Below are positions 3,615 through 26,264 of a stretch of DNA of 32,000 bases, piece after piece. Within the stretch, counting starts at the first letter, position 1, and every line of letters starts with the position of its first letter. The stretch covers positions 630,001 through 662,000 of the forward strand of contig CALSTM010000003.1 of NCBI GenBank assembly GCA_943789275.1, written 5' to 3'. The position numbers were made by a program, and so were the translations under genes. Below the pieces are notes generated by a model. The model had not been told where the DNA came from. It made no database searches and was given only the letters and a program-made list of their open reading frames with translations. The stretch is from Candidatus Poseidoniaceae archaeon. Its GTDB lineage: Archaea; Thermoplasmatota; Poseidoniia; Poseidoniales; Poseidoniaceae.

Positions 3615-4064
3615 ATGGAAAGAGAAATCGAAGGAATTGTAGAAATCGGTGCGAAAGCCGTTGTTGAACGCCGTGCCTCGGCAACAGGCCTCCTCAAACT
3701 AAGTGCTGAATCGGCACAAGCGATTCAAACAAAATCAGTCAAGAAAGGCGATGTTTTGGAAGCCTCCACCATTGCTGCAATCCAAGCGGTGAAAGACACG
3801 CCACGCATTGTTCCGCATTGTCACCCAATCCCTCTGGAAGGATGTAAGGTCCAATGGGCGTGGGAAGGGAACGCACTGCGTTGTACCGTTCATGTCTCAG
3901 CCCATTACAAGACTGGCATCGAAATGGAGGCGCTTACAGGAGTAAGTGCAGGCCTCTTGTGTGCGCTGGACATGGTCAAATCCATTGAGAAAGACGAGAA
4001 CGGTCAGTATCCCGGAACTTCCATTTCAGACATCGTTGTCCTTGAGAAGTTCAAAGGTCAGTAA
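3615..4064 (+). CDS. moaC: Cyclic pyranopterin monophosphate synthase accessory protein MoaC
   Basis: KKGDVLEASTIAAIQAVKDTPRIVPHCHPIPL...TGIEMEALTGVSAGLLCALDMVK matches conserved MoaC blocks. I chose ATG 3615, 12 nt after the moaE stop. The ORF-track start at 3582 would overlap moaE. Confidence 0.85.
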   Translation: MEREIEGIVEIGAKAVVERRASATGLLKLSAESAQAIQTKSVKKGDVLEASTIAAIQAVKDTPRIVPHCHPIPLEGCKVQWAWEGNALRCTVHVSAHYKTGIEMEALTGVSAGLLCALDMVKSIEKDENGQYPGTSISDIVVLEKFKGQ

Positions 4065-5761
4065 TTCTCAGAAAGAACTTCTTTCGCGCACTGCAGTATG
4101 CGTTCGTTTTCTTTTTGTGAACGAATGGCGAATCGAACGGCCTTATTGGTGAGGGATACACCCATGTTTTGAGCATCCCGAATGAACACACCTTTGCCTT
4201 TACACGCTTCGATAAACGAGGCTGAAGTATGGTGTGTATGCTCGGGTAAGAACGTCAAGATGAAATTAGCAACACCGGGTAGAACGGTAAACTTCTCTTC
4301 GTTCAACAAGCGGCTGAGCTCTTCCCTTTGCTGGTGAATGATGTTGTATTGCTGTCGGTAATATTCAGGGTTACGCAGTGCTGCAACCGCTGCGAGTTGT
4401 CCCGGTAGGCTAACGGCCCATGGCGGAATGAACCGCCGTAGTTCGTTCATCTTTTGACCGACCGCATAGGCTACACGCAGTCCTGACAGCGCGTAGCATT
4501 TGCTCATGCTTTTGCAGACGATGAGGCTTGGCGTGGTCGCAACCATCGATTCTAGCGATTGTGCTTCCGGTATGTAGTCGATGTAGGTCTCATCAACCCA
4601 AATCATCTTGCAACGGGTAGGGGATTCACTTTCATCTTGGATTCGGCGTACAATCTCACTCATTTCTTCGCTGTAAACGCCCGTCGGACTGTTGGGATTG
4701 ACAAAAATCACGGCATCGTGGAGGCGCGATTGTTCGACCAAATCATCAGCATTGATCTGAAAACCGTCTTCTTGGTGAAGAACAAAGTTCGTCATATGGC
4801 AACCAATGACATGGGTGAGGATGTGACTGTATTCACCGTACATCGGCGAGAGTACCATCACGTTCGAATCTTGATTGAGCAATTGCGGCAGGAACGAGAA
4901 CATCAACGAGGAGGAACCCGATGATACGGCAACATGCTTGGCGTTCACGCCACGGACATCAGCAACCGTTTCAATCAGTTCTTCACATTGCGTCGGAGGA
5001 GATTCTTGGCAACATCGTTCAAGTTGTTCCCGCAAAACATCGAGTGCTTCGGGACAAGGTGGGAACGGGCTATCGAGCACGTCGGCAACCACCAAGGAAT
5101 CACGAATTTCAAAATCGAACTTCGAAGTATCCCATGACTTGCCGCCGTGGTAGCAAACATCATCATCATCTTCTAAATTGATGTCAGCATCGATGCGTAG
5201 GGCGTGTTCCTTCATCACTTTTATGGGGTTTAGGTACATTGGATAATACAACGTTTGACCGTGCAGAACTCCGTGTTCATCAAAGACAGTCATGCCGTTT
5301 TTCCGGTACAACTCTGCAACTTCGGAATGTCCCATAGCGACGATATCTGTGCCGTCTCTTTCCAGGATAAATTCGAGCGCATACCGCATCAATCGGAATG
5401 AAATGTTCTGTCCTCGGAAAGCCGGATTTACGGTGAGAGCTCGAACTTCAAAGGTCGTGTTAAGTCGATGTTCGCATTCAGCATAGACCGTTTGTTCAAG
5501 AGTTTCTTTTGAGAAATAAGTGGTTATTCGGAACGGTTTTTCTTGAGGTGGATTGAGGCTGATGTATCCTGCGAGGACTCCGTTTTCCACGCAAGCGATA
5601 AAGTGACGTCCAGGGTCTTCGATTTTTTGTTCGGAATTGGCATCGTATTGTTGCAATTCGTTGGCATACACTTCATGACGAAGTCGAGAGATGCCGTTCC
5701 AAATCTGTACAACTTCTTTGTCATCGGGGAGCGGGTAATCAAAGTGCAAGAAATCTGCCAT
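4058..5761 (-). CDS. Fusion protein: N-terminal GNAT/N-acyl-synthase-like acyltransferase domain plus C-terminal class I/II (HisC/CobD-like) PLP aminotransferase domain
   Basis: Residues 1-190 (LRHEVYANELQQY..., VRALTVNPAFRGQNISFRLMRYALEFI) look like the acyl-CoA N-acyltransferase fold. Residues about 215-567 carry aminotransferase motifs VNPNSPTG, VDETYIDY and the PLP-lysine block CKSMSKCYALSGLRVAYA. It is a single uninterrupted 567-aa ORF. Confidence 0.75.
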   Translation of the reverse strand: MADFLHFDYPLPDDKEVVQIWNGISRLRHEVYANELQQYDANSEQKIEDPGRHFIACVENGVLAGYISLNPPQEKPFRITTYFSKETLEQTVYAECEHRLNTTFEVRALTVNPAFRGQNISFRLMRYALEFILERDGTDIVAMGHSEVAELYRKNGMTVFDEHGVLHGQTLYYPMYLNPIKVMKEHALRIDADINLEDDDDVCYHGGKSWDTSKFDFEIRDSLVVADVLDSPFPPCPEALDVLREQLERCCQESPPTQCEELIETVADVRGVNAKHVAVSSGSSSLMFSFLPQLLNQDSNVMVLSPMYGEYSHILTHVIGCHMTNFVLHQEDGFQINADDLVEQSRLHDAVIFVNPNSPTGVYSEEMSEIVRRIQDESESPTRCKMIWVDETYIDYIPEAQSLESMVATTPSLIVCKSMSKCYALSGLRVAYAVGQKMNELRRFIPPWAVSLPGQLAAVAALRNPEYYRQQYNIIHQQREELSRLLNEEKFTVLPGVANFILTFLPEHTHHTSASFIEACKGKGVFIRDAQNMGVSLTNKAVRFAIRSQKENERILQCAKEVLSENY

Positions 5762-5857
5762 GGGGGGGTTATTGCTTCGGATGTCTTCAAGAGTTTGCCG
5801 GACATTTGCAAAATTTTGAATCGTAAAGTCATTATTGGTTGGCAGGCAGGGACAACC

Positions 5858-7426
5858 ATGCGAGCAAAGGCTATGATGTTGGTTCTCCTTGTTTCGACGA
5901 TGTCGATGGCAGGCTGCTTTGGTGCCGAAGATTCCGTTGTGGAAGTTGAAATGGAACCTGAAATGGACAAGAGGGTTTTCGTTACCGACGGCACAGGTAT
6001 GGCCGTTAATGAGATGCCTCTTGAGATGGATTTCGTGTTCAGCGATGTTGGGGAAACCGGTAAGGAACCGAGCATTGGCATCACTTCAAGCGGATGTATG
6101 TTCTTTATCGCCATGGAAAAACCAATGCGCTCTTGCGACCATGGAGAGAGTTGGGAAAACACAGCCGACATTACACAAGCTCCGTTCACCAGCGACCCGT
6201 ATGGATGGGTCGACCCGGTAACTGACCGGATTTTCAACATCCACATGATGGGGCTTGCAACGACTTGGATTGGCTGGTCCGATGACGATGGAGAATCCTG
6301 GTTGGGTAACCCATACGACAGCGGTCCAGTGCCTCTCAACGATCACATCAAATTAGGTTCCGGGCCATGGACCGATTCGGGTTACGGCGGATTAGGACAA
6401 CTGAGTCCGCTTTACTCTGAAGCGGTGTATTTCTGTTACAACAAGTTGGCTGGGATTTTCTGCTACACCAGTTACGATGGAGGTGCCACTTTCCCAACTG
6501 GAGGCCAGATTTACGGACTTGCAACCAGTAATGGAGGTCTGCATGGAGCCATTACCACCGCTCCTGATGGAACGGTCTATGTGACTCCAAGAGTTGCAAC
6601 TCCAACCATCATTTACTCGAAGGATAACGGTCTTACTTGGGATACTCGAGAAATGGGACAGGACGCATCGACTCCAAACCCGCGTAAAAATTCCGAAGTT
6701 GCAACCGACTCTGAATCCAACGCATATCACGTGTGGACAGGAGGCGACCAAGGGATTTACATGGCTCGAAGTACCGATTCAGGGGATACTTGGGATTCAG
6801 AAAGTATTCGCATCAGTCCAGCAGGCGTCATCTCGACAACGTTCCCTCAAACAGATGCTGGTGACCCAGGAAGAATTGCGATAACATACCTTGGAAGTGA
6901 AAACGTTTCCTTGCTCAATACAACGGACATTGACGGAAATAATTGGAACGGAAACGGTCATTACGCACCGAGCGGGGTGCACTACCATCTTTACGTCACG
7001 TACAGTCTCAATGCACTGGATGAAAACCCAACATTCCACACCTATCGAGTTTCTGACGACCCCGTTCAAATTGGAAGTATGTGCCTAAACAGTGGCGATT
7101 GCCGTACCGATGAGGGGGGCTCAAACCGAAACTTGCTCGACTTCAACGACCTCACCATCGATCTTGAAGGAAGAGTCTACATTGCTTTCGCAGACGGTTG
7201 CATCGATGCTTGCGCTACTGGAAACAATTCGCAACCTCAAGATTCCCGTGCTGGTCGTGGCTCAGTCTACTTCATGGCCAACGGGCCAAGCCTCTATGTA
7301 GCCAACGGTGAGCTGACTTCTCCAGTTCAATCAGCAGAGATGCTTAACACCTCAACGCTCCCTCAGCTCTGTGAAGCAGAGCAGTGTCGCTACGAAGACC
7401 AAGAAGTGGTCATGAGCGACGAATAA
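5858..7426 (+). CDS. Secreted/lipid-anchored Asp-box (BNR) repeat beta-propeller protein, sialidase-like fold
   Basis: Start ATG 5858 gives MRAKAMMLVLLVSTMSMAGCFG, a signal peptide with a lipobox-like MAGC. There are five Asp-boxes (S-x-D-x-G-x-T/S-W/F): SCDHGESW, SDDDGESW, SYDGGATF, SKDNGLTW, STDSGDTW. The ORF-track start at 5543 overlaps the oppositely oriented gene and was trimmed. Confidence 0.75.
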   Translation: MRAKAMMLVLLVSTMSMAGCFGAEDSVVEVEMEPEMDKRVFVTDGTGMAVNEMPLEMDFVFSDVGETGKEPSIGITSSGCMFFIAMEKPMRSCDHGESWENTADITQAPFTSDPYGWVDPVTDRIFNIHMMGLATTWIGWSDDDGESWLGNPYDSGPVPLNDHIKLGSGPWTDSGYGGLGQLSPLYSEAVYFCYNKLAGIFCYTSYDGGATFPTGGQIYGLATSNGGLHGAITTAPDGTVYVTPRVATPTIIYSKDNGLTWDTREMGQDASTPNPRKNSEVATDSESNAYHVWTGGDQGIYMARSTDSGDTWDSESIRISPAGVISTTFPQTDAGDPGRIAITYLGSENVSLLNTTDIDGNNWNGNGHYAPSGVHYHLYVTYSLNALDENPTFHTYRVSDDPVQIGSMCLNSGDCRTDEGGSNRNLLDFNDLTIDLEGRVYIAFADGCIDACATGNNSQPQDSRAGRGSVYFMANGPSLYVANGELTSPVQSAEMLNTSTLPQLCEAEQCRYEDQEVVMSDE

Positions 7427-17086: not shown

Positions 17087-17204
17087 GAACTGCCCAAGTG
17101 CTGTCCCCTCAAAGGCATTCGCTTTGGCAAGACAAGCACAAAGGATGCTCAAGCAACGGTAAAGGGCGAAAAGACTCTTGAAGCAGATTCATTGTGCTTT
17201 GTCC

Positions 17205-17870
17205 ATGGCTCGAAATGTAAGTTTGGCTGATGCTGCTGCTCGAACCATTGCTGACCGAGCACCGAGATTGTTGGTTGTGGCAGGAGCAACCGGAACAGGG
17301 AAATCCACTGCCTCGGTTCAATTGGCGGCTGAGAACAACTTCGCACGGCTTCTTTCAACCGATGCAATACGAGAAATTATGCGTTCTTGCGATGAAGAGC
17401 GCAGCCAGTCAGCCCTCCACCGTTCATCCTTTTCACGTGGTGATTCAGGTGAGCCTGTCCTTGATTGGATGGAAACATGCAAAGCTGTGGAAACTGGAAT
17501 CATCGCTACGATTGATCGAGCTCGTCGTGAAGGCATCGACTTGATTATCGAAGGCGTACATATCAATCCAAGTGAACGCTTACTGCGCAGTTGGCGCGAG
17601 GCCGGTGGAATTGCAATTGGCCTTGTTATGGCCGTCGGTGAGGAAGACCGTCATCGTTCGATGATTCGTTCCCGAGAAGCCCATTCGTTTCGACGTGCAG
17701 ACCGTTACTTGGCAGCCTTCCCTCGAATTCGCGCCATACAAGACGGGTTAATCGAGCGAGCTAAAATTGCATCTTGGCCAATCGTTGATTTATCCCGCGT
17801 CAGTAAAGATACTGAACGCATCAAGCACCTCATGGACCTTGCTTGGAACGAACACACGCAGCGTCGTTAG
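17205..17870 (+). CDS. 2-phosphoglycerate-kinase-like P-loop kinase
   Basis: LLVVAGATGTGKSTASVQLA, STDAIREIMR and DLIIEGVHINP match the archaeal 2PGK family pattern (GxxGxGKST ... TD.IRE.MR ... IIEGVH). There is no ATP-cone domain. I chose ATG 17205; the track start at 17178 is a TTG. Confidence 0.65.
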   Translation: MARNVSLADAAARTIADRAPRLLVVAGATGTGKSTASVQLAAENNFARLLSTDAIREIMRSCDEERSQSALHRSSFSRGDSGEPVLDWMETCKAVETGIIATIDRARREGIDLIIEGVHINPSERLLRSWREAGGIAIGLVMAVGEEDRHRSMIRSREAHSFRRADRYLAAFPRIRAIQDGLIERAKIASWPIVDLSRVSKDTERIKHLMDLAWNEHTQRR

Positions 17871-18316
17871 GCGTGCGTGATGTCAAACGCCAACTGTACA
17901 GTCATCATTACTGAACCGTCAGATATGCCGAGTTCCGCTTCAAAGTGAAGTGTGCTCGCTGAAGTTTCGTTGACCTGCATTCCGATGAGTTTGATTTCAA
18001 TACCCCTCAACTCGCCATGATAGAGCATGTCGTTGTGGACGCTTTGGAATGCCGTTTCTCCGGCTTCAAGCGGTTCCAGACCACCGTCAATCCACAACTG
18101 TGTTCGTGCTTCAGTAAGTTCCGGAACGGCATCGGCCACTTCCAGCGAGGTCACCAGCACTCCGTCGGAAGCCGTGTCATGGGGCATGGTAAGCCCAGCA
18201 ACTTTGACGCCAAAGATGGCCATCGACAGCAGCGACATCAGCAAGACCACACCGGTTGCCAGCAGCATTTGTGCAGCATCTCTGTCTTCTGTTGAGCGAT
18301 CATGGAGCGTGCGCAT
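17867..18316 (-). CDS. Pilin-like protein candidate (class III signal-peptide-like N-terminus)
   Basis: MRTLHDRSTEDRDAAQMLLATGVVLLMSLLSMAIFGV has a charged head followed by a hydrophobic helix of about 22 aa. GGAGGTG lies 9 nt upstream. The start shares one base with the upstream stop (TGATG). It is the last gene of the filament operon. Confidence 0.5.
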   Translation of the reverse strand: MRTLHDRSTEDRDAAQMLLATGVVLLMSLLSMAIFGVKVAGLTMPHDTASDGVLVTSLEVADAVPELTEARTQLWIDGGLEPLEAGETAFQSVHNDMLYHGELRGIEIKLIGMQVNETSASTLHFEAELGISDGSVMMTVQLAFDITHA

Positions 18317-18756
18317 CAGGCACCACCTCCACGGTTCCAGACGTCAAGCGTAACCGTCCATGCGTGTTCATCGATGGACAGCAAGTGGTGAACAGTTACC
18401 GTTTCACCGGCGGGTGTCCCCGTATTCCCGTACGGAGCAGAAGTGCCGCTGTTCTGTGCTAACCAGCAGTTGGATTCTTTTCCTGCGACGATGTAATCCT
18501 GGAGCAGTTGGCACGCTTCGTCCAATTCTCCGTTTTCGAGTAATTCACTCAAGCGATTCTCACCCGAGATTTCTGCTTCAAGTCCAATACCGTATCGAAA
18601 GGCATCATCTCCAGCGATTTCCAGCGCTGCATCATGAGCGACCGAGGGTGCATCCGGCACTTGAATTCGAATCAAGAAGGTTGCCGACATGAAAAACAGC
18701 CAAAACAGCGTCAACATCTCGAGGATGTGGATTTGCGCTTCTTCGTTTTGACGCAT
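18316..18756 (-). CDS. Pilin-like protein candidate (class III signal-peptide-like N-terminus)
   Basis: From ATG 18756: MRQNEEAQIHILEMLTLFWLFFMSATFLIRIQVP.... The polar head, a Q, then a hydrophobic helix resemble the ..RGQAHTLE.. N-termini I recall from haloarchaeal pil-locus proteins. GGGTGA lies upstream. The track start TTG 18762 is possible. Confidence 0.5.
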   Translation of the reverse strand: MRQNEEAQIHILEMLTLFWLFFMSATFLIRIQVPDAPSVAHDAALEIAGDDAFRYGIGLEAEISGENRLSELLENGELDEACQLLQDYIVAGKESNCWLAQNSGTSAPYGNTGTPAGETVTVHHLLSIDEHAWTVTLDVWNRGGGA

Positions 18757-18762
18757 TCTCAA

Positions 18763-20352
18763 TCACCCGAAGAACAGCGGCGAAGGAACGAACGTACCCG
18801 TAGACGGATTGAGACCTGGCACTTCGGTGATACCGATAAGGTTCGGTGTGAACGCTAAGAAGTTGAACACGACAATGGACACGAGAATCATCATTCCCGA
18901 GTGCTTGAATCCAGTTGAGAATCGACCGGTTGACATGAGGCCCGCCATTGTACCGTTACCGACCGCCTGCATGGTGACACCGTAATAGAACACCGTCAGG
19001 AAAAACAACGGGTCAATGTTACGAATCGTCATGTTACCGATGGTTTGACCTCCACTGTCACCACCGTCTTCACCGCTGGAGTTCGAACCGGCAATGGCAG
19101 GAATAAAGACCACAGCAAGTGTAACAATAACCCCGAGGAAAACGAAGTATGATGTCCAAATAACCGCAATATACGAACCGATTGCACGCTTTCGTTCTCC
19201 TTCTAAGAACTTCAATTCTCGAGAGTCGTTTGCCGCAGTGACAAGGATATCCGAAATCTTACCACCTGCGCGGTCTGCTTCAGCAATAAGAGCAATCGCA
19301 CGTTGAACCAGAGGCGTTCCTACACGGTCAGCAAATTGTTTGATGACATCACTGAACTTGATACCCCAACTGAGTTGGTCGGACATTTTCTTGACTTCGT
19401 CATTTAACGCTCCGTATTCGGAGGTCGCCAGCGTTTGAATTGCAACGGTCATCGAAAGACCACCCTTCCAGTATTCTGCCAAGTCACGAAGGAAATCGGG
19501 GAACTTTTCTTCGACTTCGTTCTTTGCGTTCTCGACCCGTTCCCAGTAGTAGGACGCAGGATACAAGAGGAAAAAGAACGTCATCCCGAAGAAGTTGAGG
19601 AAAATGAACGGCCGTATGGATTTGGGCCCGAGATTGACTTCAGGGCCAAGCCAGTACGATTTGTTGTTCATGTTCGATGGAATGCCATCGTAGTAGTGGA
19701 CAGTGACATCAAACGTCATTTCTGATATTCGCTTCCCTTCTTCTTGGGAAAAGGCAACAAGTTCGTATCGTTTTTCCGCAGGAATATGATCAAGGGTGAT
19801 GCCACAACCGTCGTTATCGGGATTGTTATCGGTATCTGTAGTGCCTTGGTGGGTTGCAAGGACTTCACCGCTTTGGGAGCGAATAGCGATGATGTAGTCG
19901 GTTGGTGTATCTGCATCAACGCTGCAATTGAGCCAAAGAGGCTGGAGTACGACGATACCGGCAATCTGGTCCGAGTTTACGCCAGGGACGTCGAAGTTCT
20001 TGCCTTGTTTGGAAAATGTTCTCCATTCTTCGTTTGCCCATACCACACGGTCAGGTTCATCCTGAAGAATCGAACACGATTGATTTGCGGAGTAATCCGG
20101 TTTAATGTTCGTGTTGAACTTATCTCCCATTGAATTGCCTTGAGAATCTTCAGCGGTCATACCACAGTACAGGTTGGTGAACATTGGCTCACCGTTTGCA
20201 GTTGGAATGAATCCCGAATTGGTGGCCCAAACAGCTCCAGTGACCAAGCCTAAGAAGATGGAAACGAAAAGAATGGCATACAGTTTTGTGAGGGTGGAGT
20301 CGTCCTTCGGTAGGTCAAGTTTGACGATAATTTTATTCTTCTTTTTTGCCAA
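18763..20352 (-). CDS. Type IV filament platform protein (single T2SS-F/TadC/FlaJ-like domain) with N-terminal signal anchor and ~205-aa extracytoplasmic domain
   Basis: The C-terminal half (FPDFLRDLAEYWKGGLSMTVAIQTLA...VQRAIALIAEADRAGGKISDILVTAANDSRE...) is a T2SS-F domain followed by TM helices. Three starts are possible. TTG 20352 has a strong GGAGGTGA 4 nt upstream and is the one I chose. GTG 20370 gives a GTGA overlap with the upstream stop. TTG 20397 is the ORF-track start and gives a 31-nt overlap. Confidence 0.75.
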   Translation of the reverse strand: MAKKKNKIIVKLDLPKDDSTLTKLYAILFVSIFLGLVTGAVWATNSGFIPTANGEPMFTNLYCGMTAEDSQGNSMGDKFNTNIKPDYSANQSCSILQDEPDRVVWANEEWRTFSKQGKNFDVPGVNSDQIAGIVVLQPLWLNCSVDADTPTDYIIAIRSQSGEVLATHQGTTDTDNNPDNDGCGITLDHIPAEKRYELVAFSQEEGKRISEMTFDVTVHYYDGIPSNMNNKSYWLGPEVNLGPKSIRPFIFLNFFGMTFFFLLYPASYYWERVENAKNEVEEKFPDFLRDLAEYWKGGLSMTVAIQTLATSEYGALNDEVKKMSDQLSWGIKFSDVIKQFADRVGTPLVQRAIALIAEADRAGGKISDILVTAANDSRELKFLEGERKRAIGSYIAVIWTSYFVFLGVIVTLAVVFIPAIAGSNSSGEDGGDSGGQTIGNMTIRNIDPLFFLTVFYYGVTMQAVGNGTMAGLMSTGRFSTGFKHSGMMILVSIVVFNFLAFTPNLIGITEVPGLNPSTGTFVPSPLFFG

Positions 20353-20366
20353 CTTCTCACCTCCTC

Positions 20367-21386
20367 TCACATTTCTTGTTCTTTGCTGCTTGTCCAAACC
20401 AATATGGCGTAAGCAATGTGAATCATTGGTACAAACCCGAGGACAATACCATAGAGCATACCTTCAGACATTTGAGCACCGCTACCGGAGACCCAGAACA
20501 TGATGACCAGCATGACAATCAGGAACAGCGGCATAGCCACAGCGACGACAATGTACGATTCTGCCAGAAGCGCAATCGATTCAAGGAACATCTGAAGGCG
20601 TGTTCGGTTTTCACGCATGTAGTGCTCTGCACGGTTAAGGAAATACAATTTCAGTTGACCACCAGCAGTCAATGTACCAACCATGCCTTGGAAGAACTCC
20701 GTTAACCAAACGGATGCGGCTCGATCGACGCTCATTTTCATGGCCGTGATGAGGTCATAGCCAAGCAAGGTAACATCTCTGTACACCATGGCAGCGTCGT
20801 CTGCGACGTCACCGTAGATGTCTTTGTTCATGGCAAGAGAGCGGAAAATCTTGGAAGGTGTTGCGTTTGCCGCAGACATTGCAGCGGTATAGGATGCAGC
20901 GTAAGGAAGGTACTTCTCAATCATAGCACCTCGTCGTGCAGCCTCTCGGGCTGCTCCACCCTTGTTGTACTTGAAAGCGCCATAGGGAATAATCAATCCA
21001 CCAAGAGCAATGATGAGTGTTTTGAGGATTGGTGGGAAGACTTGGTATGCAAATCCATCGCAACCGTTTCCTGGTTTGTTCGGGTCAACCAAATCTTGAT
21101 TCCAGTACTCCCACTCGAAACAGTAGTCGATGGTCGCAGGGTCTTGGATGCTCTCCCAATAGGCAATGACGCCGATATCTGGGATGAAAAACAGCGAGAC
21201 GAACCCCCATGAAACCAGCGTAATGGCAATGGTTGTCATGATTGCAGTAGCAAGATAGACTTCTGGCATAATCGGCATAGCGCCTTTGACCAGGCTCTTT
21301 GCGAGCTCTTTGTCGCCACGAGCACGCTTACGCAAGAATCGACCGAGAAAACGGTTGCAAATCCTTTGCCACGTGGTTAAGTCCAT
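20367..21386 (-). CDS. Type IV filament platform protein (single T2SS-F/TadB/FlaJ-like domain)
   Basis: 339-aa polytopic protein with T2SS-F-like core EKYLPYAASYTAAMSAANATPSKIFRSLA...GYDLITAMKMSVDRAASVWLTEFFQGMVGTLTAGGQL. The SD GGAGTGA lies 5-6 nt upstream of ATG 21386. Confidence 0.75.
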   Translation of the reverse strand: MDLTTWQRICNRFLGRFLRKRARGDKELAKSLVKGAMPIMPEVYLATAIMTTIAITLVSWGFVSLFFIPDIGVIAYWESIQDPATIDYCFEWEYWNQDLVDPNKPGNGCDGFAYQVFPPILKTLIIALGGLIIPYGAFKYNKGGAAREAARRGAMIEKYLPYAASYTAAMSAANATPSKIFRSLAMNKDIYGDVADDAAMVYRDVTLLGYDLITAMKMSVDRAASVWLTEFFQGMVGTLTAGGQLKLYFLNRAEHYMRENRTRLQMFLESIALLAESYIVVAVAMPLFLIVMLVIMFWVSGSGAQMSEGMLYGIVLGFVPMIHIAYAILVWTSSKEQEM

Positions 21387-21405
21387 CGAATCACTCCACT
21401 TTTGT

Positions 21406-22932
21406 TCAACGAAGGCCGTCGACCCGCTCTAAGATTTCAGTTGGCCGGACATAATACTCGGTGACGATTTGCGACACTTGGTCTGCCTTACGAATATCGT
21501 TCAAAACCATCCATTCAAGGATACGCTTTCGAGTACGCAATTCTCGTCGCATATCATCTTGTGAATAATTGAGTTTCACCATGATTTTCTCAAGAACATA
21601 GGATTTACCGCTAAAGATGAAATCATCACTGGTGACGTCCCAACGGAACACTTCGTTGGTGATGATTTCCAGAGAGTTCGGGTCGATACCGACAATCTCA
21701 ACCAGTTGCTTCGTACGTCGAACACGCTTTCCATTGATACGGGTTTGAATCTGAATGCAACACGCTTCCAAAGCAGGCAGAAGAACACGCGGGATGTCAA
21801 TCGGTTTGTTCTCTAACCGGTGGACAAGGGACGGTACGGAGTCGGCGTGGACCGTTGAATATGCGCAGTGACCCGTCGCCATGGCTTGGAACAGAACGTA
21901 GGCTTCAGCACCACGAATCTCCCCGACAATGATGTATTCTGGCCGCTCACGAAGAGCCGCTTTGAGCAACTCGAACTCCCCAATGACACCGTCGGTCGAT
22001 TCTCCACCGAAACCTTGCCGAGTAAGACCTGGCACCCAGTTTGGTTGAGGGATATTGACTTCACGGGTTGATTCGATTGAGACGATTTTCATTTGCCAAG
22101 GAATGAAAATACACATGGCGTTGAGCGTCGTTGTCTTCCCGGAAGCAGTACCGCCGACAAACAGCATTGGAACTTCATTTTGGAATCCGATCCAAAGATA
22201 AGCGACCATTAACGACGACATGGTTCTGAACGCCACGATATCAGCAGGTGAGAACGGGTCGTCTTTGAATCGTCGAATACAGAAGGCTGAACCACGGGTT
22301 GAGATTTCGTGCCCAAGTTTCATGACAATTCGAGAACCATCCATCAGCGTAGCATCCAGCAATGGGTCGGCAACTGAAATGTGCTTGCCACAACGTTGGG
22401 CGAGTTTGATAACATAGGATTCCAATTCGTGGTCTGTGTTCCAAACGCAGGTTGTTTCAACCGATTCGAATTTCCGATGGTAGGCAAAGATCGGAACTCC
22501 AGTGCCGTCCATAGAAATATCTTCGACGTTAATGTCATTCATGAGGACATCCATTTGCCCGTAACCAATCAGGTCTCGGCGCAAATAATAGAAAATCTTG
22601 GATTTCGACTTTTTATTTATTTTCATGCTATAGGCTTTGATGACTTTATCCATAGCCGTTCGAATGTAGGCTTCCGGATTTGCATCGATTTCTTCGATGT
22701 TGGCCGTAAGGGAGCGAATGAAGATGTCGAGGATTTCATCTCGGTATTCTTGTTCTCTTTTGGTCATCGGTGGCTCGATGATTTGGTAGATGATGTTGAG
22801 CGTTTGCTTGTCACGAACGATGCGCGCAAAGGCGTGCGGTGGCATGACTGGGTACTTGTCGAGCTCGTCGTATTGGGCGCGTTGTTTGGCTCGCTGACGC
22901 TTGCCACCACCTTTGTTTTGTTTTCTTGCCAT
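21406..22932 (-). CDS. Archaeal type IV filament/secretion ATPase (FlaI/PilB/TadA, VirB11-like superfamily)
   Basis: Walker A VGGTASGKTTTLNA, Walker B/Asp box RPEYIIVGEIRGAEA, His box ATGHCAYSTVHADS, and an N-terminal Y.IIEPP.. domain typical of FlaI-type ATPases. Length is 508 aa. Confidence 0.9.
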   Translation of the reverse strand: MARKQNKGGGKRQRAKQRAQYDELDKYPVMPPHAFARIVRDKQTLNIIYQIIEPPMTKREQEYRDEILDIFIRSLTANIEEIDANPEAYIRTAMDKVIKAYSMKINKKSKSKIFYYLRRDLIGYGQMDVLMNDINVEDISMDGTGVPIFAYHRKFESVETTCVWNTDHELESYVIKLAQRCGKHISVADPLLDATLMDGSRIVMKLGHEISTRGSAFCIRRFKDDPFSPADIVAFRTMSSLMVAYLWIGFQNEVPMLFVGGTASGKTTTLNAMCIFIPWQMKIVSIESTREVNIPQPNWVPGLTRQGFGGESTDGVIGEFELLKAALRERPEYIIVGEIRGAEAYVLFQAMATGHCAYSTVHADSVPSLVHRLENKPIDIPRVLLPALEACCIQIQTRINGKRVRRTKQLVEIVGIDPNSLEIITNEVFRWDVTSDDFIFSGKSYVLEKIMVKLNYSQDDMRRELRTRKRILEWMVLNDIRKADQVSQIVTEYYVRPTEILERVDGLR

Positions 22933-23062
22933 ACGCGCACCCTCTGCCGAAGCATTTTGTCACACGCTATGGCCGACTATAACTCTTGGGTGAAAACAAC
23001 CCCAAAAACCGTTACCTGCGAGCAGAATATTTTCTCCACAATCTCCGTTTTGACGGCAGAGT

Positions 23063-23647
23063 TTATTCCTCGTTTTCAAACGCAGAAAGCCACTGTTCAC
23101 AGGCGGCTTGAAACTGGTCGAGTTCAACGTTGTTATCAATCAAATAATTTGATTCAGCAATGATTTGTTCAAGGCCCCATCCACGCTCTCGTGCATCACG
23201 AATCTCAAACGATTCTCGGTCACCGTCTTCCGAACGACCTCGGTTCTGAATCCGAGTAAATCGTGTATCGGGTGAAGCATCAACAGCCAAGGAAGAGAAG
23301 TTATTCCCCCAGCGTTGTTCAAAAACGATGCGTTCGGCCGTTCCTCGCATGCCCTCGATAAGGACAATTGAGTGGTTCTTCAAGTGTGCATCAACAGCGT
23401 CTGCCAGTCGCACTGCGAGTACATCTTCACCGTGTTCGGCACGTAACTGTGCTGCGATTTCACCAAAAATTCCTGGAGATTCTTCCAATTCTAACCGTCG
23501 AACTTCAGCACGAACCATGTCACCCATCGACAACACTGGGATGCCGTGTGAATGCAGTACATTGGCGAACTCACCTTTGCCTGAGCCCGGCATACCGCAC
23601 ACTGCAACGACTCGGGCCATGCTTGAACGGCGCAGCCGAATGCTCAT
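23063..23647 (-). CDS. UPF0200-family archaeal P-loop nucleotide kinase-like protein
   Basis: VAVCGMPGSGKGEF, IPVLSMGDMVRAE, LIEGMRG, RIQNRGRSEDGD and RDARERGWGLEQIIAESNYLIDNN fit the UPF0200 / dephospho-CoA-kinase-like pattern. ATG 23647 has AGGAGGT 6 nt upstream. Confidence 0.75.
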   Translation of the reverse strand: MSIRLRRSSMARVVAVCGMPGSGKGEFANVLHSHGIPVLSMGDMVRAEVRRLELEESPGIFGEIAAQLRAEHGEDVLAVRLADAVDAHLKNHSIVLIEGMRGTAERIVFEQRWGNNFSSLAVDASPDTRFTRIQNRGRSEDGDRESFEIRDARERGWGLEQIIAESNYLIDNNVELDQFQAACEQWLSAFENEE

Positions 23648-23682
23648 CAAGATACCTCCTTTCAGTAGCCAAAGTTTGCGTT

Positions 23683-25383
23683 TCAGTTTGAGAACTCCGC
23701 CTTGCCCCAACGTCGGTCCATCAACTTCCAAAGCAGTGCAGAGGCAAGAATCAAACCAACCGAGATAGCAATCATGCCTTTGTAACCTTGCTCAACCATG
23801 CTCTGGTCGTACATGGAAGCAGTCGCAGCCAGACCGTCTTGCGATGCTCGCTCCCACCAGTTCCCGTACAGTGACACGTCGCCTTGAGTGAACGACAGCA
23901 GGAACAACAGCAACAGCGGGACAACGGTTCCAATCCAAAACCAAATCATAATCGATGCATCAAAAATGGCCTTGTTCGGACGTAAACCCATCAAGAAAGC
24001 CGTCAGAGCAACGATGTAAACGGAGTTCGCAAACATGACGATGATGCTGGTTGGAAGCGCACCCCATTCGTCCAATCGCCACGCCATGAGGACAATGAAA
24101 ATCAGTGAGATCCATGATGTTGCAAGGAAGTAAACCACCACTTTTGCTCGAATCAGTTGCGGGACACGGAGAGGGAGTCCGTTCATGAATTCCGGTGAGT
24201 CAAGTATGGTCAGCCATGAGTAGAAGTTGAATCCAAAGAAGCCGAGGAAAGGGGCATACGAAAGTAAATTGATTGGTATTGGGGCTTCTGCAAAGTCAAC
24301 CAGCCACGCCATTCCAAGCAGAACAAGCAACGGAATGGCGTATGAAACGGTCATTTTCTTGAGCGACCCCGAACGGAACAGGTCAACGAATTCTTTCGCC
24401 ACGATGAGTCGAATCTCACCGCGCCCAAGGAAGCCCAATCGATTGTAAATCGGGAGAAACAATTCTTTTCGCTCGACAACTGATACGTCGAAGTCATCGA
24501 TGATGAGGGTGGATGAAAGCCAACCCAATCCGACACTCCCGGCCAAGGCCAGTAAAGCAGTGAAAGGGTTCTGTGAATTCTGTACGCCGAGTCCCCAGAG
24601 CATCGAACCAATGTCGAATTTACCTAAGCCAATCGCGATTCCAAGTACAACGATAAGTGCAGGTCCGACGATGGTGTACGGTCGTCCTCGCATCCACAGT
24701 GCTGAGGCAAAAAAGGCGATGGCAAGGCCTTGTGCAAGGGTGATAATCATCGCTAACCAAGTCCATGGCAGGCTTGACCATTCCAGTGGAGTCTTGATGT
24801 TCGCCGCCGATTCAAGCAGTATGCCAAGTGCCATTCCGGTGACCACAGGAGTGAGGATGAGCATGACATAGAAGCACAAGTCTTTGACAAAATAAGCAAA
24901 GTGAGCAACCGAATTCGGCAAGGGCTGCAGCGCTGGAGCTGCAAGGAGGTAATTCTTGGTTCCTGCCCGGTGAACGATGGCGTCATGACCCATGAAAGCG
25001 AACGTACCCATTCCAAGACTGAACATCAACAAGGGGAGGTGGAGCGCAAATCGGAGTTCATCCCAAGTGAACGTTTTCGATTCCAAGTCGCTCACTTGGG
25101 CGGTCGAATCCCCAACTAAAAACTGCAAACCAATGGTCGTCACAGCGGTAACCAACGTCAGTAGAAGCGGAAACAACACGATTTGTCGTTTTTTAGCGAA
25201 CTCAATGCTTTTTCGTCCTTCCTCTTTGAACATCACTCGAAAGGTGGCAGAAAAGGCGTTCCAACCTCGCAACGGCTCGTGCAAGTGTTGCTGATGTGAA
25301 CTGGTGCCAAGCGGCTCTTGCAGCGAATGTCCATCGCCAACCACTTCTTCCCAATCACGTGAGACAACGCTTACTCCTGGCAC
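23683..25383 (-). CDS. Large polytopic ABC-transporter permease (unclassified, 566 aa)
   Basis: It has at least 12 hydrophobic segments and starts 3 nt after the ABC ATPase stop. I recognise no conserved motif. The assignment rests on adjacency and topology. Confidence 0.65.
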   Translation of the reverse strand: MPGVSVVSRDWEEVVGDGHSLQEPLGTSSHQQHLHEPLRGWNAFSATFRVMFKEEGRKSIEFAKKRQIVLFPLLLTLVTAVTTIGLQFLVGDSTAQVSDLESKTFTWDELRFALHLPLLMFSLGMGTFAFMGHDAIVHRAGTKNYLLAAPALQPLPNSVAHFAYFVKDLCFYVMLILTPVVTGMALGILLESAANIKTPLEWSSLPWTWLAMIITLAQGLAIAFFASALWMRGRPYTIVGPALIVVLGIAIGLGKFDIGSMLWGLGVQNSQNPFTALLALAGSVGLGWLSSTLIIDDFDVSVVERKELFLPIYNRLGFLGRGEIRLIVAKEFVDLFRSGSLKKMTVSYAIPLLVLLGMAWLVDFAEAPIPINLLSYAPFLGFFGFNFYSWLTILDSPEFMNGLPLRVPQLIRAKVVVYFLATSWISLIFIVLMAWRLDEWGALPTSIIVMFANSVYIVALTAFLMGLRPNKAIFDASIMIWFWIGTVVPLLLLFLLSFTQGDVSLYGNWWERASQDGLAATASMYDQSMVEQGYKGMIAISVGLILASALLWKLMDRRWGKAEFSN

Positions 25384-25385
25384 GG

Positions 25386-26177
25386 TTACTCCTCCTCAGT
25401 TTCTCCGTCCTTGACACCTTCGTTACTCAGCCGCTCAACATCTTCGATTGAGCGTCCAACCAAGCGGATGAAGACATCTTCCAACGTCTCTTCATCCGAT
25501 GTTTTGAGTCCTTTAACGGTGCCAGCGGCGAGGACTTTGCCGTTGTTGATAATCGCCATTCGGTTGCACATGCGCTCCGCCATTTCCAGAACGTGTGAAC
25601 AGAGAAAAATCGTTCCACCGTTTTTCACATGTTCAAGGAGCCATTGGCGGCATTTTCGCTGATAAATTGGGTCAAGGTTGGCAAACGGTTCATCGAGGAA
25701 CAGGAGTTTCGGTTTGTGAATAAACGCAGCAGCAAGCATGACTTTTTGACGTTGACCTTTGGACAAATCTTTGCACATTGTGTCTCGCTTCTCATCCAGT
25801 CCAAACCAGTCAATCCAGTGCTCAACATTGTCATCGATACGGTCAACACTGCGGAGTTTTGCCACGAACTCAAGGAATTCTACAGGGGTAAGGAAGGACG
25901 GTGGTGATTCTGATTCAGGGACAATTCCGATGTTGGCTTTGACCTTCTGGGGGTCGGACACTGCATTGACTCCCAAAACTTCGATTCGACCTTTACTGGG
26001 TCGTAATTGGCCGGTGAGGAGTTTGATGAAGGTGGATTTCCCGGCACCGTTGGGGCCAAAAACACCGAAGAATTCACCGGCGTGAACTTCGACGTTCAGC
26101 GGATGAAGAGCAATGAAGTCACCGTATTTTTTGGCCATGTCTATTGCCTTAACGAGCGGTGCGGTCGATTCAACCAT
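25386..26177 (-). CDS. ABC transporter ATP-binding protein (ABC-2/DrrA-like)
   Basis: Walker A GPNGAGKST, signature LSKGQRQKV, Walker B LLFLDEPFANLD, H-loop CSHVLE. I chose start ATG 26177 (MVESTAPLVKAIDMAKKYG). ATG 26225 is an alternative. Confidence 0.9.
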   Translation of the reverse strand: MVESTAPLVKAIDMAKKYGDFIALHPLNVEVHAGEFFGVFGPNGAGKSTFIKLLTGQLRPSKGRIEVLGVNAVSDPQKVKANIGIVPESESPPSFLTPVEFLEFVAKLRSVDRIDDNVEHWIDWFGLDEKRDTMCKDLSKGQRQKVMLAAAFIHKPKLLFLDEPFANLDPIYQRKCRQWLLEHVKNGGTIFLCSHVLEMAERMCNRMAIINNGKVLAAGTVKGLKTSDEETLEDVFIRLVGRSIEDVERLSNEGVKDGETEEE

Positions 26178-26264
26178 ACACTGTGTAAACGGTCGTGGTC
26201 TTTGAGTTCTTGGTTGACAGTTCATGAACGGTGAAATGATGAACTGAAACCGTTTGGCACAACC

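Follow-up and report, generated by a model that had tools for sequence, protein, structure and literature searches.

Clade 2 loci of the euryarchaeal type IV pili (T4P) combine an ATPase of arCOG01817 with platform proteins of arCOG01808, and include those of Aciduliprofundum boonei, the AfGspE loci of Archaeoglobus, and PilB3-C3 and PilB4-C4 of Haloferax. Two tadC-like genes are present in many of the Clade 2 euryarchaeal loci, in Clade 1 (Epd) and in Thermoproteales 4B, and the Sulfolobales have one or two of them (Makarova et al. 2016, PMC4858521). In A. boonei, the arCOG01817 ATPase gene is followed by genes for two arCOG01808 TadC proteins, one of 332 aa and then one of 290 aa (Makarova et al., Table S4, PMC4858521). 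The Epd-like and Tad platforms arose when a two-domain archaeal gene split, and Tad systems, including the bacterial TadB/TadC pair, are of archaeal origin (Denise et al. 2019, PMC6668835). Here we analysed a 32,000-nucleotide stretch of a Candidatus Poseidoniaceae genome (contig CALSTM010000003.1, positions 630,001 to 662,000; hereafter the window), in which five consecutive genes on the minus strand (17867-22932) encode an ATPase, two TadC-like platform proteins and two small prepilin-like proteins, termed P4 and P5. The operon encodes pilus-like machinery of an already described archaeal kind, probably euryarchaeal Clade 2, with a fissioned platform, and not a new type of machine. It is chromosomal and part of the Poseidoniaceae core genome, and we consider it probable that it forms the assembly core of a Clade 2-kind archaeal type IV filament. 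A preliminary description of this DNA, made without knowledge of its origin, had supposed a planktonic marine archaeon as the host, which agrees with the Ca. Poseidoniaceae (Marine Group II a, MGIIa). The Poseidoniales, which have no cultured representatives, rank with the most abundant archaea of surface seawater.

An AfGspE-like ATPase and a split platform

The first gene (21406-22932, minus strand, 508 aa) encodes an ATPase of the FlaI/PilB family. The protein matched Pfam T2SSE (E = 1.2e-24) and contains the Walker A motif GGTASGKTTT at residues 260-269, together with IIVGEIRG at 334 and YSTVHAD at 358; the preliminary description had assigned it correctly. The Walker A, Walker B and His box elements, by which the core ATPase of type IV filament (TFF) systems is recognised within the PilB/FlaI/GspE family, were all found. 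Weak matches were obtained to Pfam PilB3_N and PilB3_C. The top relative in the PDB was GspE of Archaeoglobus fulgidus (AfGspE, 2OAP; 392.5 bits over residues 25-501), and other matches were FlaI of S. acidocaldarius (4II7; 265.5 bits) and CpaF (124 bits). The NCBIfam FlaI equivalog NF058587 scored 391.7 bits against a cut-off of 550, and the BasE, TadA and VirB11 models were far lower (BasE 192.8 bits against a cut-off of 1000; TIGR03819 127 bits). AfGspE is labelled 'Clade 2, arCOG01817' (Makarova et al. 2016, Figure S4, PMC4858521), and on these comparisons the best-supported placement of the window protein would be in the AfGspE/PilB3-PilB4-like branch.

The next two genes encode TadC-like 1 (TadC1; 20367-21386, minus strand, 339 aa) and TadC-like 2 (TadC2; 18763-20352, minus strand, 529 aa). 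As the preliminary description had proposed, they are separate proteins with a single T2SSF domain (PF00482) each, with E = 7.6e-12 in TadC1 (residues 166-292) and 6.2e-13 in TadC2. The scores of 45.7 and 49.3 bits exceed the gathering threshold of 25.2 and identify both as platform proteins of a TFF core. TadC1 aligned to the N-terminal half of models for two-domain platforms (FlaJ 46-224/555, UpsF 84-220/484) and TadC2 to the C-terminal half (FlaJ 312-543/555, UpsF 300-395/484); the platform is therefore split colinearly, with the N-terminal half encoded before the C-terminal half. Scores with the FlaJ models were 26-59 bits against cut-offs of 400-570, and those with BasF 18-29 bits against 1300. 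No significant similarity between TadC1 and TadC2 was detected by BLASTP, and their kinship is visible only through the T2SSF profile. Weak 'Pizza' matches to TadC1 contained no passing stretch and look spurious.

About four transmembrane (TM) segments were predicted in TadC1, with an outside loop (residues 72-115) that includes the invariant Cys89 and Cys109. In TadC2, hydropathy predicts an extracytoplasmic insert of ~205 aa between TM1 and TM2 (residues 43-248; 19609-20226, minus strand). The insert holds four cysteines and three N-x-S/T sequons; Cys63 and Cys93 are invariant, and Cys143 and Cys183 are present in 84% of the species. It is the least conserved region of the protein and is nevertheless kept in all Poseidoniales loci seen, including the most divergent ones, whose TadC2 proteins are 516-518 aa long. 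The ectodomain had no Pfam or PDB sequence match. S-layer contact and the gating or recognition of subunits are candidate roles for it.

The preliminary description had regarded the split platform as a peculiarity of bacterial Tad systems, and the layout as one that might match no named archaeal class. Neither view could be upheld. Loci with two TadC genes are documented in archaea (PMC4858521) and the bacterial split is itself of archaeal origin (PMC6668835). Because precedents exist in Clade 2, Epd and Thermoproteales loci and the gene order of A. boonei is identical, the arrangement of an ATPase and two TadC proteins falls in a described archaeal class and the split is not unusual (PMC4858521).

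Conservation of the operon across Poseidoniaceae

In a scan of one genome per species, a relative of the ATPase was encoded in 257 genomes; the 80 top loci were retained and compared by tblastn of the window proteins. The five genes have the same order in every one of these 80 species-level loci, wherever the contig reaches. The flanks are also constant: upstream are genes for an ABC ATPase, for a membrane protein of 566 aa and for an adenylate-kinase-like protein, and downstream are a convergently oriented AAA_33 gene and one for an aldehyde dehydrogenase. Amino acid identity to the window proteins over the 80 loci was 90-99% for the ATPase, 65-96% for TadC1, 60-93% for TadC2, 52-96% for P4 and 48-92% for P5. 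The ATPase is more conserved than its housekeeping neighbours. Two far more divergent loci retain the five genes and their flanks, with an ATPase that is 82% identical, P4 39-46% and P5 34-42%.

The ratio of nonsynonymous to synonymous substitutions (dN/dS, Nei-Gojobori) against the nearest species was 0.006 for the ATPase, 0.036 for TadC1, 0.033 for TadC2, 0.020 for P4 and 0.052 for P5. For the ATPase it lay between 0.006 and 0.04 in eight of 11 comparisons, those in which dS was not saturated. The low values in all five indicate expressed proteins under purifying selection, including P4 and P5, which belong to no known family. Judged by the conserved order in 80 loci and the low dN/dS, the five co-directional minus-strand ORFs (open reading frames), proposed as an operon in the preliminary description, are real genes and not products of chance.

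P4 and P5 have prepilin-like N-termini

P4 (18316-18756, minus strand, 146 aa) and P5 (17867-18316, minus strand, 149 aa) are bitopic prepilin-like proteins, each with a single N-terminal TM segment. P4 starts with the leader MRQNEEA, followed by a predicted cleavage site before Gln8, the stretch QIHILEMLTLFWLFFMSATFLI and an alpha+beta domain with invariant Cys82 and Cys97. P5 has a 15-residue leader, a predicted cleavage site before Gln16, the stretch QMLLATGVVLLMSLLSMAIFGV and again an alpha+beta domain. Across species, the short leader of P4 varies freely up to the invariant boundary [E/D/N/S/G][A/G]↓Q[I/V]HILEMLTLFWLFFM (the arrow marks predicted cleavage). The P5 leader, of ~9-20 residues, has no conserved sequence and ends at the boundary [K/R/T/A/G/Q][A/G]↓QMLLATGVVL(L/M)MSLLSMA. 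Many lineages have the canonical KAQ, RAQ or RGQ at the P5 site, and AAQ of the window is a derived variant. This combination of a variable leader, an invariant [A/G]↓Q and an invariant hydrophobic stretch of 22 residues was found in 74-76 orthologs and in the two divergent loci. The N-termini thus fit the pattern expected of class III (prepilin) signal peptides, a resemblance already pointed out in the preliminary description and here extended to the orthologs.

The predicted [A/G]↓Gln site agrees with those of the Epd pilins of Methanococcus maripaludis, which are processed at RAQI, KGQV and KGQL and in which Gln at +1 is required by the peptidase EppA (PMC4371748, Table 1; PMC3875500). An acidic residue at -2, as in P4, also occurs in Haloferax PilA1-3 (DAVS; PMC4371748).

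The window P4 and P5 belong to no Pfam or NCBIfam family, their profiles matched nothing among the PDB sequences, and no kinship between the two was detectable. A phmmer search of P4 against 1.84 billion representative sequences yielded 58 clusters, mostly fragments plus full-length proteins of P4 size; three proteins of more than 1,300 aa were also matched, close to the E-value limit. The clusters that were checked for source or context came from Poseidoniales or lay within the same operon. Conserved pairs of extracytoplasmic cysteines are found in P4, TadC1 and TadC2. AlphaFold2 models of P4 and P5 had a predicted local distance difference test (pLDDT) of 79.5 and 74.0, respectively; in each, a linker of low confidence joins the TM helix to an alpha+beta domain, composed of three helices and four strands in P4 and of two helices and three strands in P5. 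Top Foldseek matches were Tctex and uS3 for P4 (E = 0.018) and the N-terminal NTF2-like domain of PBP2a for P5 (E = 0.02). With TM-scores of 0.27-0.37 they reflect generic alpha+beta similarity and were not taken as indications of function.

Two minor observations concern P4. In six loci (L044, L048, L053, L057, L058 and L072), the P4 leader and [A/G]↓QIHILEM are in frame and no ATG, GTG or TTG lies between the TadC2 stop and the leader, which suggests that P4 of this sub-clade uses a non-canonical start (CTG?) or coupled re-initiation. A distant P4 homolog on a 682-bp ENA contig (P0254) resembles Glu/Gln tRNA synthetase at its N-terminus (PF00749, E = 8.7e-12), probably because the assembly is chimeric or the gene was wrongly called.

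Relation to the haloarchaeal DUF7287-7289 cassette

Searching plasmids with the ATPase by tblastn revealed homologs on haloarchaeal megaplasmids with ~42% identity. In Halobaculum halophilum and on pHM500 of Haloferax mediterranei, the genes for a PilB-like ATPase and a fused T2SSF protein are followed by five small genes, encoding in order DUF7287, DUF7288, DUF7261, DUF7266 and DUF7289, a cassette of 'predicted pilins'. All five cassette proteins open with DR[A/G]↓[Q/T/V] and a hydrophobic stretch. The second member, DUF7288, starts with RAQAHTLEGL or RAQTFTLESV, in register with EAQIHILEML of P4; the third, DUF7261, starts with RAQMFLIGG or RAQLLLVGA, and P5 orthologs have RAQMLLATG. The order of members 2 and 3 is the same as that of P4 and P5.

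Profile comparisons point in a similar direction. DUF7261 was the top family in seven of 14 P5 orthologs (best 20.1 bits, E = 8e-4, below the gathering threshold of 27). Aligned by hhalign with 30 proteins of the DUF7261 family, P5 gave E = 2.2e-4 and a probability of 45% over 59 N-terminal columns, with the cleavage site in register. Four of 13 P4 homologs matched DUF7262, the best over residues 21-140 against profile positions 18-131/132 (22.1 bits, E = 2.2e-4, also below the gathering threshold of 27). DUF7262 was not seen in the haloarchaeal cassette examined. Since these Pfam and hhalign results are sub-threshold, we describe P4 as 'DUF7262/DUF7288-like' and P5 as 'DUF7261-like' by sequence resemblance and do not claim membership in these families.

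The Clade 2 loci of Archaeoglobus contain a comparable series of 'predicted pilin family proteins' (arCOG06117, 04652, 07777/06552, 03926 and 02911). The families of the DUF7287-7289 cassette were nowhere characterised in the literature that we searched, and the role of Haloferax PilB4-PilC4 is said to 'remain to be established'. The Poseidoniaceae operon is a compact, two-subunit relative of this poorly understood cassette and could help to define the minimal role of its proteins. On two haloarchaeal metagenome contigs (L088 and L089) the cassette is tandemly duplicated, and its second copy encodes DUF7261 and DUF7266 proteins with fused PKD and GH115_C-like domains, which suggests that the 'predicted pilins' of the cassette can carry surface-exposed functional modules.

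Comparison with named systems

Several features are shared with Clade 2 loci. AfGspE is the best PDB match of the ATPase, the order ATPase-TadC-TadC is that of A. boonei, the TadC genes adjoin the ATPase gene, and prepilin-like genes are encoded in cis. The operon differs from these loci in having two pilin-like genes and not five to six. No gene of the arCOG02911 or PilA/Pilin_N type was found in the window, where the operon proteins and all ORFs of at least 120 aa were scanned for families. P4 and P5 reach no Pfam threshold, their domains are predicted to be alpha+beta, TadC2 has the ~205-aa ectodomain, and the platform is split, whereas at the haloarchaeal loci examined it is fused (~675 aa). 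What distinguishes the operon is its set of two pilin-like genes with predicted alpha+beta domains, the Cys-containing ectodomain of TadC2, a very conserved ATPase and a fixed synteny in the core genome.

The Epd pili of M. maripaludis (ATPase EpdL, platform EpdJ and EpdK, peptidase EppA; 'Clade 1' or 'Epd-like') also have two single-domain platform genes and pilin-like proteins with [A/G]↓Gln sites. In Epd pilins a Glu residue is found at +5, and the major pilins are 67-76 aa long; in P4 the Glu is at +6 and P5 lacks it, and both proteins, which would be ~140 aa when mature, are twice as large as major Epd/Flp pilins. A short (~60-75 aa) major pilin of the Epd/Flp type would combine Gln at +1 with Glu at +5; of these features, only Gln at +1 was found. 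Epd genes are arranged as platform, platform, ATPase and FlaH-like ATPase (Denise et al., PMC6668835), whereas here the ATPase comes first and there is no such second ATPase. The flanking P-loop genes encode AAA_17/18 (adenylate-kinase-like) and AAA_33 proteins, and not KaiC or MinD as would be expected from Epd or Tad loci. EppA has been reported only from Clade 1 organisms (PMC4858521).

Bacterial Tad systems (Flp pilin; TadA/CpaF, TadB and TadC) share the split platform, and their ATPases belong to the same broad branch (CpaF 124 bits, TIGR03819 127 bits). The usual gene order in bacteria is tadA-tadB-tadC. The platform halves are ordered here N-terminal then C-terminal, whereas TadB aligns with the C-terminal and TadC with the N-terminal half (Denise et al., PMC6668835). 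The host is an archaeon, and no Flp pilin, TadZ, secretin or TadV was found; membership in bacterial-style Tad systems was rejected. Membership in the Sulfolobus Bas system was rejected on its model scores, 192.8 bits against 1000 for BasE and 18-28.6 against 1300 for BasF.

The archaellum shares the ATPase and platform superfamilies with the operon, and FlaI and FlaJ are the best-named NCBIfam models. Both score under their equivalog cut-offs (FlaI 391.7 against 550 bits, FlaJ 26-59 against 400-570), and the platform is split. In accordance with the preliminary description, the window contains no archaellin (PF01917), FlaF/G/H, KaiC-like or prepilin peptidase (peptidase A24) gene; the operon is not an archaellum operon, and archaellum membership was rejected.

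A proposed filament assembly core and its alternatives

The operon could work as follows. One conserved promoter would drive all five genes, and the ATPase, presumably as a hexamer, would dock on a membrane platform made of two polypeptides that match the halves of FlaJ/PilC. P4 and P5 would insert in the membrane through their N-terminal hydrophobic helix. A class III (prepilin) signal peptidase encoded elsewhere would cut them between [Ala/Gly] and the invariant Gln, and the ATPase/platform motor would then pull them from the membrane and incorporate them into a surface filament, at its base or in its body. We infer that such a peptidase is present somewhere in MGIIa genomes, because these genomes encode archaellins; a literature search on MGII combined with prepilin peptidase or flaK gave nothing useful. 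Since the nearest analogues of P4 and P5 are accessory cassette proteins, in whose systems PilA is often encoded in trans, these two are more likely to be minor or priming subunits than the bulk pilin, and the major pilin may be encoded in trans. Major PilA pilins of the related haloarchaeal systems are encoded in trans (Makarova et al. 2016, PMC4858521). By analogy with the pili of Haloferax, Halobacterium, Sulfolobus and Methanococcus (PMC4371748), the filament is likely to serve in adhesion to surfaces or particles.

Several results weigh against such an assembly core. The links of P4 to DUF7262 and of P5 to DUF7261 lie below the Pfam thresholds, the P5 link concerns mostly the N-terminal third of the protein, and hidden Markov models (HMMs) of the Poseidoniaceae P4 and P5 orthologs gave no significant score on the haloarchaeal cassette proteins. 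The FlaFind rule would reject both window proteins, P4 for His at +3 and P5 for Ala at -2. No prepilin peptidase and no Pilin_N/PilA-type pilin was found in the 32-kb window or within +/-10 kb. Foldseek comparison of the P4 and P5 models with the PDB returned no pilin and nothing significant (best E ~0.02). Typical archaeal pilins are all-beta and immunoglobulin (Ig)-like (Makarova et al., PMC4858521), and the modelled fold of P4 and P5, alpha+beta with a break after the TM helix, would be atypical among them.

A complete minimal pilus, in which P4 and/or P5 are the sole major subunits and a shared peptidase is all that is needed besides the five genes, is possible but rather doubtful; the 'complete minimal machine' of the preliminary description is unproven. 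Such a pilus would agree with a self-contained operon that has its own putative promoter and always exactly two prepilin-like genes, with invariant hydrophobic N-termini that would suit a filament core, and with the Sulfolobales systems, which are approximated by three components with the pilins in the operon (PMC4858521). It is at odds with the nearest analogues (DUF7288/DUF7262 and DUF7261 types), which form an accessory cassette with a predicted major PilA/Pilin_N pilin nearby or in trans; P4 and P5 also evolve slowly for exposed major pilins, and no pilin fold was recovered. That missing fold, together with the predicted succession of TM helix, flexible linker and compact alpha+beta domain, would be explained if P4 and P5 were uncleaved bitopic proteins that anchor or align the motor, like FlaF/FlaG or PilN/PilO/GspM, with the filament subunits encoded elsewhere; conservation of the TM helix could equally mean contacts with the platform. 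Uncleaved anchors would not account for leaders that differ freely in length and sequence ahead of an invariant [A/G]-Gln boundary, for the canonical K/R-[A/G]-Q site in many orthologs, or for N-termini in register with cassette proteins that start DR[AG]↓[QTV], and we think this role unlikely. A filament subunit with unusual properties is a further thought: P4 and P5 may be alpha+beta pilins with Gln at position 1, different from the Ig-like archaeal pilins of known structure, that build an as yet unseen MGIIa filament on a platform with a large Cys-stabilised ectodomain, and this filament, not the archaellum, may be used for particle attachment or as the magrovirus receptor. We hold this extended proposal to be speculative and on balance improbable.

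The layout of an ATPase, a platform and a few small pilin-like proteins also parallels the Sulfolobus Bas system, and BasE and BasF are weak matches, so that the product could be a bindosome-like structure or pseudopilus, short and membrane-proximal, that displays or secretes proteins with class III signal peptides such as substrate-binding proteins or hydrolases. The host is a peptide- and lipid-degrading heterotroph, and two genes of the same strand, for an ABC ATPase and for a membrane protein of 566 aa, directly precede the operon in invariant synteny. These ABC genes are separately spaced and lie before the putative operon promoter, AfGspE matches the ATPase much better, and the Bas scores given above exclude membership; a bindosome is quite unlikely. 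An auxiliary function in the archaellum is very improbable and already largely refuted. It rests on the names FlaI and FlaJ, which are the best KEGG- and NCBIfam-style assignments and under which Orellana et al. describe genes of this kind, and it conflicts with the FlaI and FlaJ scores under the cut-offs, with the lack of archaellin or FlaF/G/H genes nearby, with the separate flaB, flaH, flaI and flaJ loci of MGIIa, and with a split platform that is atypical of archaella.

Previous reports of the operon and its ecological context

In the literature searched, the operon appears only once, as 'additional flagella components' (Orellana et al.). That study reported separate archaellum loci in MGIIa genomes plus 'additional flaJ, flaI and tadC genes', a remark that very likely refers to the operon described here. 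The genes have thus been seen before, without being identified as a pilus-type module of their own. Rinke et al. and Tully et al. dealt only with the archaellum operon, with FlaHIJ and archaellins as its defining genes. The words 'pilus', 'pili' and 'pilin' are absent from the main text of Tully et al., and 'pili' occurs in Rinke et al. only in the title of a cited review. The inferred ability of Poseidoniales to attach has until now been attributed to archaellum, flotillin and thrombospondin-like genes (Rinke et al., Tully et al.).

The operon is a concrete candidate for adhesion or for a virus receptor, and counts of 'flagella genes' that are based on the KEGG orthologues flaI and flaJ need correction. 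The general picture of archaeal type IV filaments is unchanged by it; its significance is mostly ecological, with some lineage-specific features.

Putative promoter, start codons and junctions

A promoter-like element, CACCCAAGAGTTATAGTCGG, with a TTATAG core that resembles a B recognition element (BRE) and TATA box, is located at 22973-22992 on the minus strand, ~48 nt upstream of the ATPase ATG. Its core, GTTATAGTC, is near-invariant across 16 diverged species. When the 150 nt upstream of the ATPase gene were aligned in the 16 species, the block CACCCAAGnGTTATAGTCGG was near-invariant amid unconserved intergenic DNA, and is probably the BRE/TATA of one promoter for the whole operon. The same block is a possible handle for finding other genes of the genome that are regulated together with the operon. 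The ATPase gene has a short 5' leader with a purine-rich stretch that resembles a Shine-Dalgarno (SD) sequence, GGCAGAGGGTG (22938-22948, minus strand), which appears in the upstream alignment as a conserved GG(G/A)GGT block.

TadC2 starts with TTG at 20352, with the SD sequence GAGGAGGTG directly 5' of it, at 20353-20366. A mechanically called ORF of 544 aa overshoots this true start. Public contigs that encode an identical ATPase have independent gene calls with the same five products, in which TadC2 is 529 aa long. In gene order, the junctions within the window are 19, 14, 6 (0 with the TTG start) and -1 nt. The '0-4 nt' junctions of the preliminary description therefore apply to the last two and not to the first two.

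Neighbouring genes and other observations

Upstream of the operon, the region 23063-26225 (minus strand) encodes the ABC ATPase (279 aa), the 566-aa polytopic protein, which has no Pfam family, and the adenylate-kinase-like AAA_17/18 protein, in a synteny with the operon that is invariant over 80 species. On the other side, the convergent gene for an AAA_33/zeta-toxin-like P-loop kinase (17178-17870, plus strand) overlaps the P5 stop by 4 nt. It is missing from one of the divergent loci (L090), where the aldehyde dehydrogenase gene is directly next to the operon. Neither the Rfam nor the tRNA scan of the window gave a match.

One contig (L031, NZEQ01000077.1), deposited as 'Verrucomicrobiales bacterium isolate ARS100', carries the operon with an ATPase that is 93% identical and with Poseidoniaceae flanks. 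It was almost certainly mis-binned in a bacterial metagenome-assembled genome.

Farther away in the window, a 567-aa GNAT-aminotransferase fusion is encoded at 4058-5761 (minus strand) and a 627-aa protein with weak BNR/sortilin-type repeats at 5543-7426 (plus strand). The two ORFs overlap by ~220 nt, and one of the starts is probably wrong.

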